NCBI GenBank assembly: GCA_022703585.1
Contig: JAKLDJ010000001.1
Span: 676,006 to 740,005, forward strand
Length of the DNA: 64,000 nt
Direction: 5' to 3'
Source: Candidatus Omnitrophota bacterium
GTDB taxonomy: Bacteria; Omnitrophota; Gorgyraeia; Zapsychrales; JAKLDJ01
Part shown: one piece after another, positions 13,464-14,226 of the stretch
Layout of the letters: every line of letters begins with the position of its first letter
Numbering within the stretch: position 1 is the stretch's first letter
Position numbers and translations under genes: made by a program
Notes under the pieces: model-generated
What the model saw: only the letters and a program-made list of their open reading frames with translations
What the model was told of the DNA's origin: nothing
Database searches by the model: none

Positions 13464-13496
13464 CCGTTCTGCTTTTGCGTGGGGCATAGCCTGCTG

Positions 13497-13524
13497 TTGA
13501 CATCTTCAAGAACTTTGCTACAAT
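13497..13524 (+). promoter_or_regulatory. sigma70-type promoter upstream of the tRNA cluster (TTGACA-16-TACAAT)
   Basis: TTGACA at 13497-13502 and TACAAT at 13519-13524, about 25 nt upstream of the first tRNA. Confidence 0.5.
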
Positions 13525-13548
13525 GGTGACCCTGTAAGATAATAAATT

Positions 13549-13621
13549 GCCGAGATAGCTCAGGTAGTAGAGCGCAGGCCTGAAAAGCCTGGCGTCCCCA
13601 GTGCAAGTCTGGGTCTCGGCA
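13549..13621 (+). tRNA. tRNA-Phe(GAA)-like gene with non-canonical D-loop and T-loop (possible pseudogene)
   Basis: The cloverleaf folds: acceptor GCCGAGA/TCTCGGC, anticodon loop CTGAAAA. The D-loop AGGTAGTA lacks G18G19 and the T-loop reads TGCAAGT instead of TTCRANY. Confidence 0.45.
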
Positions 13622-13712
13622 CTTGACTTCCTCTAAACTACAAGGATAGGCATTCAGAAAAGTCAAGTGCAGTCCCGACCTCCTTAGAATATGATTAGAG
13701 GAGGGTCGGGGC
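13619..13712. repeat. hairpin repeat units H1-H2 (GCACTTGACTT...AAGTCAAGTGC; GTCCCGACCTCC...GGAGGGTCGGGGC) abutting the tRNA 3' end
   Basis: Inverted repeats with 11-13 bp stems separated by AGT/AGC linkers. H1 begins inside the last 3 nt of the tRNA-Phe-like gene. Confidence 0.6.
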
Positions 13713-13855
13713 GGCACTTTACTTCTTTAGGGTTTAAAGGCTGTCATGCAGCAAGGTCGGACACGGAGCCACTTTTCCTTCCAAAATCATTGCCAATATT
13801 TTAAATATCCGTTAGAATAAAATTACTCCAAGGCTGTCGAATCGTGCTGAATATT

Positions 13856-13928
13856 GCCGATGTAGCTCAGTTGGTAGAGCAACGGTTTCGTAAACCGTAG
13901 GTCGGAGGTTCAATTCCTCTCGTCGGCT
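13856..13928 (+). tRNA. tRNA-Thr(CGU)
   Basis: Canonical 73-nt cloverleaf: GCCGATG acceptor, D-loop AGTTGGTA, anticodon loop TTCGTAA, T-loop TTCAATT. Confidence 0.9.
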
Positions 13929-13955
13929 TTTAAATATCATACATGGCGTAGTTCA

Positions 13956-14146
13956 GCACTTGCCTTCCTTTAAAAGTATGCTAGAAAAGGCAAGTGCAGC
14001 CCTTGACTTTTATAGGATGTAAGTTTCTTAAGTTTAAAGGAAGTCAAGGGCAGCCCAGCTATCCTTAAAATCTTATTCTAGAGGAGGCTGGTGCAGTCTT
14101 CGACCTTTCGGAATACAGTTTTTTAAGTTTAGAGGAAGTCGAAGGC
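13956..14146. repeat. hairpin repeat units H3-H6 (GCACTTGCCTT..., GCCCTTGACTT..., GCCCAGC..., GTCTTCGACCTT... each with a matching 3' arm)
   Basis: Four consecutive 42-53 nt imperfect palindromes. They share loop motifs TAAGTTTAAAGG / TAAGTTTAGAGG and AGT/AGC junctions. Confidence 0.6.
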
Positions 14147-14206
14147 AGTTGGTAGAGCAACGGTTTCGTAAACCGTAGGTCACCAGTTCAATTCTGGTCG
14201 CCAGCT
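14147..14206 (+). pseudogene. 5'-disrupted second copy of tRNA-Thr(CGU): D-loop to 3' end is intact, but the D-stem 5' strand is replaced by hairpin repeat H6
   Basis: AGTTGGTAGAGCAACGGTTTCGTAAACCGTAGGTC matches the tRNA-Thr at 13856 exactly. A possible 5' acceptor GCTGGTG lies at 14087-14093, separated by H6. No GCTC D-stem strand is present. Confidence 0.5.
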
Positions 14207-14226
14207 TTTTTCTACCTCAAAACCCG

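Follow-up and report, generated by a model that had tools for sequence, protein, structure and literature searches.

How did a tRNA operon of an Omnitrophota bacterium come to be filled with short palindromes, and what have they done to its genes? The question is raised by a locus in a stretch of 64,000 nucleotides (nt) of Candidatus Omnitrophota DNA, which we call the window. All positions are numbered in that window; designations of the form L0xx and L1xx refer to loci from relatives; L101 is the exception, being on the window's own contig. In the operon, a promoter (13497–13524) precedes tRNA-Phe(GAA), an intact tRNA-Thr(CGU) and, as the third unit, a broken tRNA-Thr; seven hairpin units lie between and around these genes. 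[quoted passage not shown] Because the units belong to a shared family, relatives have empty sites, copy numbers vary and one tRNA gene has been destroyed, we favor the MITE/REP-like reading over a purely RNA-functional one. The destruction is restricted to the third unit, and tRNA-Phe is intact.

The interrupted tRNA-Thr gene

The second tRNA unit, tRNA-Thr(CGU) at 13856–13928 on the plus strand, was recognized by both ARAGORN and Rfam with 73.1 bits, in agreement with its description as an intact gene. The third was found by Rfam only, as a tRNA-like stretch at 14148–14206 (30.5 bits) that aligned without a D-arm; the contiguous 5′ acceptor strand and D-arm of a functional tRNA are lacking. 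The third unit had been described as a second tRNA-Thr copy, identical to the intact one from the D-loop to the 3′ end. Direct reading bears this out over 36 identical nt, but the 5′ end, thought to be displaced by a single hairpin, is displaced by four.

The missing 5′ end lies 192 nt upstream of the 3′ part, as a relic at 13942–13956 on the plus strand (CATGGCG TA GTTC AG; CATGGCGTAGTTCAG). It matches positions 1–15 of the tRNA-Thr in two relatives, L090 and L087, and ends in the target trinucleotide CAG. Both relatives have a single tRNA-Thr(CGU) downstream of tRNA-Phe, with the acceptor GCTGGCG/CGCCAGC and the sequence GCTGGCGTAGCTCAG. The 3′ part in the window (14149–14206, plus strand) covers everything from position 16 of the D-loop through the 3′ end, with a T-run behind it, and has the same CGCCAGC acceptor strand. 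The order between the two parts is relic-CAG-U4-CAG-U5-CAG-U6-CAG-U7-CAG-TTGG, where U4–U7 are hairpin units and TTGG is the start of the 3′ part, giving five copies of CAG for four insertions. When 13957–14148 was deleted in silico, ARAGORN found a tRNA-Thr(cgt) with a full cloverleaf, in which the top of the acceptor stem has two decayed pairs.

The relic, the four CAG-terminated hairpins and the cloverleaf restored on rejoining all argue that the third unit is the ancestral tRNA-Thr(CGU), split after C13-A14-G15 of the D-loop by four successive hairpin insertions, each of which left one more CAG. We had considered it to be a D-armless tRNA with the acceptor GUUGGUA, as the Rfam alignment suggested, but dropped this for the split-gene reading because the rejoined halves fold as a cloverleaf.

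The intact tRNA-Thr shares a derived anticodon stem with the split gene and differs from it in the acceptor stem. A promoter-like site of its own, TTGCCA-17-TAGAAT, lies ahead of it (13790–13818, plus strand; a consensus match only, with the sequence conserved in L086). It is this paralogue that does the work of the split gene, which it has replaced. A candidate leader hairpin in front of it (13788–13862) was rejected, as it folded no better than shuffled sequence (z +0.5) and was not maintained in L086.

Anatomy and distribution of the hairpin family

Seven hairpin units were delimited in the operon, where at least six palindromes had been counted before. They were scored with R1, a covariance model of the family trained on these same copies. 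The four in the split gene, each followed by CAG, are U4 (13957–13996, minus strand, “flip” orientation; z −3.3, 51.1 bits), U5 (14000–14050, plus strand, “flop”; z −4.8, 46.4 bits), U6 (14054–14093, plus strand, CCCAGC...GGCTGGTG; z −2.3) and U7 (14097–14145, plus strand, flop; z −3.2, 40.2 bits). U6 matches R1 weakly, with 23.6 bits (E 0.0013) on the minus strand and 18.1 bits on the plus strand. Its 3′ arm is similar to the 5′ acceptor strand of tRNA-Thr, and the GCTGGTG of the unit, as read from the sequence, pairs in seven of seven positions with CGCCAGC.

The other three units follow tRNA-Phe. U1 (13620–13669, minus strand, core in flip orientation) has a perfect 11-bp stem (z −3.1, 50.9 bits) and an orthologue in L086; its 5′ arm takes in the final two bases of tRNA-Phe, and it had been noted that the first palindrome starts inside this gene. 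U2 (13673–13711, plus strand, TCCCGACCTCCTTAGA...TTAGAGGAGGGTCGGGG; z −2.7, 35.4 bits) differs from its L086 counterpart by two compensatory pair changes. U3 (13714–13752, plus strand) is degenerate and partly absent in L086, and it alone does not fold better than shuffled sequence (z +0.49, compared to −2.3 to −4.8 for the other six). At its start CGGCACTT(T)AC, the 3′ end of tRNA-Phe plus its trailer, occurs for a second time. This end and trailer, CGGCACTTGAC, recurs after tRNA-Phe in direct, inverted and again direct orientation (repeat I1, AAGTCAAGTGCAGTCCCGACC / GGTCGGGGCGGCACTTTACTT). The orientation of the units is mixed in one transcript: U1, U4 and M1 (a copy at tRNA-Met, described below) point one way, U5 and U7 the other. 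The junctions, previously given as AG(T/C), are really CAG trinucleotides, more generally CWG, that flank every hairpin on either side. New relative to the initial annotation are the duplicated CAG, the precise point at which the D-loop was split and the repeated fragments of tRNA ends. Mimicry of a Shine–Dalgarno or anti-Shine–Dalgarno sequence by the core ACCTCCTTA in U2 was also considered and set aside as probably compositional.

For a description of the family as a whole, 15 copies from six loci (the window and five others) were aligned in a common orientation over 58 columns (alignment A3). A copy is about 40–55 nt long and consists of CWG, an outer stem (C-N-C-T-T-G-R-C), TTTTCTA, a loop, TAGAGGAAG, the complementary outer stem and CWG. 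The inner stem, CTTTTCTA...TAGAGGAAG, is conserved, with two T·G pairs on one strand. Loop sequence is unconstrained, and the outer stem of 6–8 bp is variable between copies yet complementary. The 13-bp stem is 90.5% paired, compared to 41–55% when the 3′ partner is slid by one to three columns. Eight of the 13 pairs have changed on both sides, and the covariation score was reached by none of 500 shuffles. Orthologous copies of U2 and M1 in the closest relative (enolase 95% identical) also show compensatory pair changes with a conserved loop. Such compensatory changes in the aligned stems indicate that the hairpins are one homologous family, as had been proposed.

The copies have terminal inverted repeats, as MITEs do, with a stem of 13–17 bp whose outer part varies between copies. 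Like REPs and bacterial interspersed mosaic elements (BIMEs), they are short imperfect palindromes repeated in the genome, with at least 10 copies in 85 kb (the window plus L101). The GTAG or CGTC tetranucleotide that marks one end of REP/BIME elements was not found; the flanks are CWG, sometimes CGG/CCG, on both sides. Alignment A3 contains no attC boxes (R″/L″-L′/R′, RYYYAAC...GTTRRRY), and there is no integrase in the window. Searches against Rfam families other than tRNA gave only sub-threshold chance matches to microRNA and plastid hairpin models. CRISPR, tandem interspaced guide RNA (TIGR) arrays, box C/D RNAs, riboswitches or T-boxes, and self-cleaving ribozymes were rejected for lack of Rfam support and of associated proteins among the scanned window open reading frames (ORFs).

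The initial annotation had proposed a covariance model as a means of telling a local repeat from a dispersed one. With filters off, every significant R1 match in the whole window fell at two tRNA loci, Phe/Thr and Met, and none elsewhere. Nothing was matched in L101 beyond the copies at its tRNA-Gln(CTG) gene, where three family copies alternate with three acceptor-mimic hairpins upstream of the gene, all separated by CTG. The family is not merely local, since it recurs at tRNA-Met (27404–27457) and tRNA-Gln (L101), yet the 85 kb examined contain it at tRNA loci only: all three (Phe/Thr, Met and Gln) carry it, and about 50 other intergenic regions do not. With up to three mismatches allowed, 6.35 occurrences of the motif AAGTCAAGTGCAGY are expected in the window; there are 16, a number reached by none of 100 shuffles. 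Long-loop hairpins (20–31 nt) are confined, in the whole window, to the two tRNA loci, except for two weaker pairs, of which one lies within the enolase gene. The remaining inverted repeats of the window look like terminators. One of the inverted repeats, a perfect 16-bp hairpin at 48789–48834 (GGGGCAGCACCCTTTT / AAAAGGGTGCTGCCCC) flanked by CAG/CTG and situated between two genes, matched R1 only weakly (E 0.27) and is probably a terminator.

Outside the genome, R1 gave no matches in a control set of 1.34 Mb that covers other Omnitrophota as well as other phyla; its 80 loci came from a contig scan based on H+-translocating pyrophosphatase (H+-PPase), and none of them is syntenic or from a close relative. 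A strict two-arm pattern scan of metagenome contigs, among which the genome of the window was not included, gave five matches, four of them by chance in coding DNA and one a real array (L100). A scan of viral contigs for the family found nothing. The same hairpin, for example CACTTGAC-TTTTCTA...AGAGGAAG-GTCAAGTG, occurs at three unrelated tRNA loci, in enolase, and in two genomes whose GltX proteins share 70% identity. Full-text searches of the literature turned up no account of palindromic repeats restricted to tRNA loci in Omnitrophota.

Gene ends, empty sites and surroundings

The tRNA-Met gene of the window (27520–27593, plus strand; CAU anticodon, initiator-like with C1/A72; 60.7 bits) is preceded by a pseudo 5′ acceptor strand, GCGGGG, then CAG, the hairpin M1 (27404–27457, flip; R1 42.3 bits) and a second CAG, together at 27398–27457 on the minus strand. 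A leader hairpin follows (27458–27526, plus strand; repeat I2; −43.2 kcal/mol, z −9.0), with a perfect 20-bp stem whose 3′ arm contains the true 5′ acceptor strand; ahead of this stem the sequence reads GCGGGG-CAG-hairpin-CAG-CCCCGC. The M1 orthologue in L092 has two compensatory pair changes, and the leader stem there carries a symmetric 2-nt indel in both arms, as would fit snap-back template switching.

Other gene-adjacent hairpins are likewise built from a tRNA end in one arm and its complement in the other. At the tRNA-Gln gene of L101, TTGCC-CTG / hairpin / CTG-GGCAA...TTGCC-CTG is repeated three times. These arrays range from one to four hairpin pairs across L103, L102, L101 and L100, and in L100 and L102 the TGCCCTG-hairpin-CGGGGCA equals the true tRNA-Gln acceptor. 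Since the arrays lie between promoter and tRNA or between tRNAs, they should be transcribed. The predicted precursor folds keep all hairpins, pair the promoter-proximal pseudo-acceptor with the true 3′ strand, and lock the true 5′ strand in the last hairpin. Maturation would probably need cleavage of the stem by RNase III or RNase E before RNase P.

Two further loci have related features. Upstream of tRNA-Met in L095 (11660–11831) are two tandem units, GCG(T/C)GGGG-CTG-hairpin(CGTGAAACA loop)-CG-TCCCG(C/T)GA, with an architecture like that of the window and a different hairpin sequence that R1 does not match. At L100 1–60 (minus strand), a tRNA-Gln-like gene is normal up to its anticodon CTG and continues as a hairpin, CCCCGCACC...GGTGCGGGG-CAG, whose sequence is like the 3′ end of the tRNA together with its complement, where the contig stops; this could be either another insertion at CTG or an assembly fold-back.

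Orthologous loci in relatives differ in the presence and number of hairpins, even among close relatives. In L090, tRNA-Phe and tRNA-Thr are separated by 47 nt and there are no hairpins, and the tRNA-Met leaders of L093 and L094 are plain. L092 has about 230 nt more units than the window, bounded by CGCGGGGCAG repeats. L086 and L087 have two hairpins within a duplicated 5′ fragment of tRNA-Phe, a position at which the window is an empty site. Contigs of relatives often stop inside arrays, as expected of multi-copy repeats.

One insertion affects a protein-coding gene. The 3′ end of the enolase gene in L092 has a 77-nt insertion in its last codons, made up of two hairpins. The first encodes the last nine codons in recoded form, specifying the same peptide with 7–8 synonymous differences, and the original end remains downstream of the insertion, almost identical to that of the window.

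The first unit of the operon, tRNA-Phe(GAA) (13549–13621, plus strand), had been considered a degenerate, tRNA-like gene on account of its non-canonical loops. The loops are as described (D-loop AGGTAGTA, T-loop TGCAAGT, with A18 in the former and G55 in the latter), but the gene is functional. It was recognized by ARAGORN and scores normally against the tRNA family RF00005 (61.2 bits, threshold 29). Its sequence is nearly unchanged in L086, L087 and L090, and both loops are invariant in the window and three relatives (neighboring DUF3568 protein 87%, 70% and 66% identical). The A18/G55 loops were noted in L087 (9079–9151) too, whose tRNA-Thr has the same two loop changes (AGTTAGTA / TGCAATT). 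These changes look like a lineage-wide covarying replacement of the G18:Ψ55 tertiary pair in an Omnitrophota clade, rather than decay.

The operon promoter, TTGACA-16-TACAAT (13497–13524, plus strand), was correctly recognized at the outset; it matches the consensus in 11 of 12 positions and its hexamers are (nearly) invariant in L086, L087 and L090. The neighborhood consists of ordinary housekeeping genes, among them those for H+-PPase, a DUF3568 protein, PMT_2/TPR (tetratricopeptide repeat) proteins, enolase and DivIC. The identical locus was found in contigs of up to 1.6 Mb from several metagenomes. Directly downstream of the tRNA locus (14227–19882) are three paralogous genes in a row, whose products combine a large N-terminal region with TPR repeats at the C terminus; only the first matched PMT_2. 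Relatives carry one or two, and in L087 a spermine-synthase-like gene is inserted. Between enolase and divIC is a tandem (TGACAGC)×4 (26995–27028), and the L092 sequence there is unrelated. Just after tRNA-Met (27595–27740), ahead of an 82-aa GIY-YIG ORF (27745–27993), are GC-rich inverted repeats (27605–27621 / 27647–27663, with further GCGAAGGGC-like words). They are a different repeat from the hairpin family, with a weak R1 match at E 3. Just downstream of the plain tRNA-Met in L093 (12700–17400) are genes for a primase-polymerase-like protein and a phage-type integrase, which probably belong to an island that integrated at this tRNA.

Origin of the repeats and comparison with known systems

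We consider it likely, with a probability of roughly two in three, that the hairpins are lineage-specific, REP/MITE-like palindromic insertion elements, distinct from both REP/BIME and MITE, that target or survive in tRNA operons, grow by tandem insertion and snap-back copying, and are transcribed as removable spacer. An insertion would duplicate its CWG target and thereby recreate it, giving rise to tandem arrays. The palindromes may then extend outward by snap-back (template-switch) synthesis that copies the neighboring tRNA end, which would yield the direct-inverted-direct triplets of pseudo acceptor strand, complement and true acceptor strand. Template switching at quasipalindromes and tandem inversion duplication, studied by Ripley, by Lovett and by Kugelberg and Roth, are reportedly known mutational mechanisms. 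The arrays would be co-transcribed with the tRNAs, from which RNase P and RNase Z could excise the tRNAs whatever their flanks, and the long stems could serve as substrates of RNase III. Because RNase P and RNase Z ignore the flanks and RNase III cuts long stems, inserts may be least harmful in tRNA operons, which would explain the restriction to them. The mobilizing enzyme would be encoded outside the window and act in trans.

Several observations weigh against this reading. The 85 kb searched with R1 belong to a genome of >1.6 Mb, which limits the conclusions on tRNA restriction and copy number, and no mobilizing enzyme was identified among the window proteins scanned: the 42 that were searched against Pfam (54 candidate ORFs) include no transposase, integrase or mobile-element nuclease. 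Several copies in the alignment have CGG or CCG as the right-hand flank, and the outer stems vary from copy to copy, as would not normally be expected of transposase-recognized ends. At the enolase site in its empty state there is no CWG, and what is duplicated is a segment of about 28 nt, so target duplication of 3 nt is not universal. The duplicated segments, from 3 to about 30 nt, fit template switching or recombination better than a classical cut-and-paste enzyme. Finally, the 20-bp leader stem of tRNA-Met stays perfect while its loop diverges, and the array upstream of tRNA-Gln is kept across relatives down to 70% GltX identity, either of which could mean selection on the RNA.

Such selection is the essence of the alternative that survives best, in which the hairpins are selected parts of the tRNA precursor, leader and spacer structures that control or time maturation. 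They could do so by keeping the true 5′ acceptor strand locked until RNase III or RNase P acts, or through alternative 1:2, 2:3 and 3:4 pairings of pseudo-acceptor, anti-acceptor, true 5′ and true 3′ strands. This would account for the stems kept by compensatory changes, for the perfect 20-bp leader with its symmetric indel in L092 and diverging loop, and for the pairing of the distal pseudo-acceptor with the true 3′ strand in the predicted folds. It would also account for the recurrence of pseudo 5′ strand, hairpin, complement and true 5′ strand at tRNA-Met in the window, L092 and L095 (the last with a different hairpin sequence) and of the same architecture at tRNA-Gln in four genomes. It fits poorly with copies in both orientations within one transcript, with close relatives that lack hairpins at the same tRNA genes, with four copies that destroy a tRNA gene, and with one in the end of a protein-coding gene. 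Arm-to-arm correction at the DNA level, or the need for a DNA hairpin, can also maintain pairing. On balance, we regard a primarily regulatory origin as unlikely, if worth keeping in mind.

A bolder variant, to which we give somewhat less credence still, is that the repeats are a previously undescribed, tiny insertion element specific to tRNA genes. It would recognize CWG in or beside the helix of a tRNA end, insert itself as a folded hairpin, and carry along or generate a spare gene end, which would let essential tRNA genes withstand repeated hits. The leaders, with a pseudo-acceptor in competition with the true acceptor strand, would later have been co-opted to gate maturation.

It is improbable that no mobile element was involved, and that tRNA genes were instead duplicated in tandem, the upstream bodies then collapsing to hairpins by internal deletion, with later slippage at short repeats of CAG and with decay. 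Hairpins do have pseudo 5′ and 3′ acceptor strands on their flanks, for example in L100 and L102, the unit numbers of relatives differ at repeat boundaries as they would from unequal crossing-over, and the two tRNA-Thr copies are paralogues. But no hairpin resembles a tRNA body, the same hairpin is found at three unrelated tRNA loci, in two genomes and in enolase, and removing the hairpins cleanly restores the split tRNA-Thr.

Surrogate gene ends are a classical signature of integrating elements, such as phage 21 and e14 in icd. Miniature integrative cassettes, moved by a site-specific recombinase acting on the folded hairpin like an integron integrase on attC, with a stem that mimics the target duplex and supplies such an end, would suit the constant trinucleotide separators of the arrays, the gene-adjacent hairpins with one arm complementary to the gene end, and the recoded spare end of the L092 enolase beside its displaced, nearly unchanged original, but are the least probable of these explanations, as the window has no integrase, the hairpin bases have no conserved boxes like R′/R″, snap-back copying gives complementary arms without a new enzyme, and the enolase is the only informative case of a surrogate end.

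Should the restriction to tRNA loci hold across the genome, the tRNA operon itself would be the niche of this bacterial family of palindromic repeats. The series of insertion states (empty sites, single copies, arrays, a split tRNA with a paralogue, and a protein gene with a recoded spare end) could show how small palindromes insert and grow. It also raises the question of how an initiator tRNA matures when its 5′ acceptor strand is, as predicted, locked in a 20-bp leader stem. In practical terms, the arrays break metagenome assemblies at tRNA loci, and tRNA finders can miss or miscall genes in Omnitrophota metagenome-assembled genomes.

Among known systems, tandem inversion duplication and quasipalindrome switching offer direct-inverted-direct flank triplets at short palindromes and symmetric changes in both arms. 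They are known at kilobase or single-site scale, and not as the routine growth of a repeat family in tRNA genes; the likeness here comes from sequence alone. Integron attC arrays are also tandem hairpins with a constant short core between them and with a hairpin arm shared with the downstream target, but they have conserved R/L boxes, an integrase and cassette ORFs, which the present arrays lack, and the site here is inside tRNA operons. Rickettsia palindromic elements are tolerated inside genes, RNA genes included, without loss of the gene product. They are 100–150 nt long and read through in frame, whereas here the gene is split and backed by a paralogue, or rescued by a duplicated gene end.

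REP/BIME elements and REPINs (REP doublets forming hairpins) are mobilized by REP-associated tyrosine transposases (RAYTs) of the Y1 type, none of which was found among the 42 window proteins scanned. They share with the present family the short imperfect palindrome with a conserved short tag beside the stem and G·T pairs on one strand, the clusters in alternating orientation, and tandem reiteration together with bits of flanking DNA. Both are sometimes found in palindromic targets or gene ends (PMC3733652). They differ in that the tag here is CWG on both sides, as opposed to GTAG or CGTC at one end, the loops are long (12–30 nt), the outer stem is variable, and the copies in the 85 kb are in tRNA operons only, whereas REPs are spread over extragenic space. 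Bacterial MITEs (Correia, RUP, Nezha) are non-autonomous, with terminal inverted repeats and a short duplicated target (here CAG at the split tRNA-Thr). They too show presence/absence polymorphism and are co-transcribed as hairpins that RNase III could cut. Compared to these, the present elements are much smaller (40–55 nt), with terminal sequences that are not constant and duplicated flanks of 3 to about 30 nt, and we know of no parent insertion sequence with matching ends. The family is closest to the REP/BIME and MITE repeats; it lacks the REP tag, and is set apart from both by its CWG flanks, variable outer stem, restriction to tRNA loci and spare gene ends.

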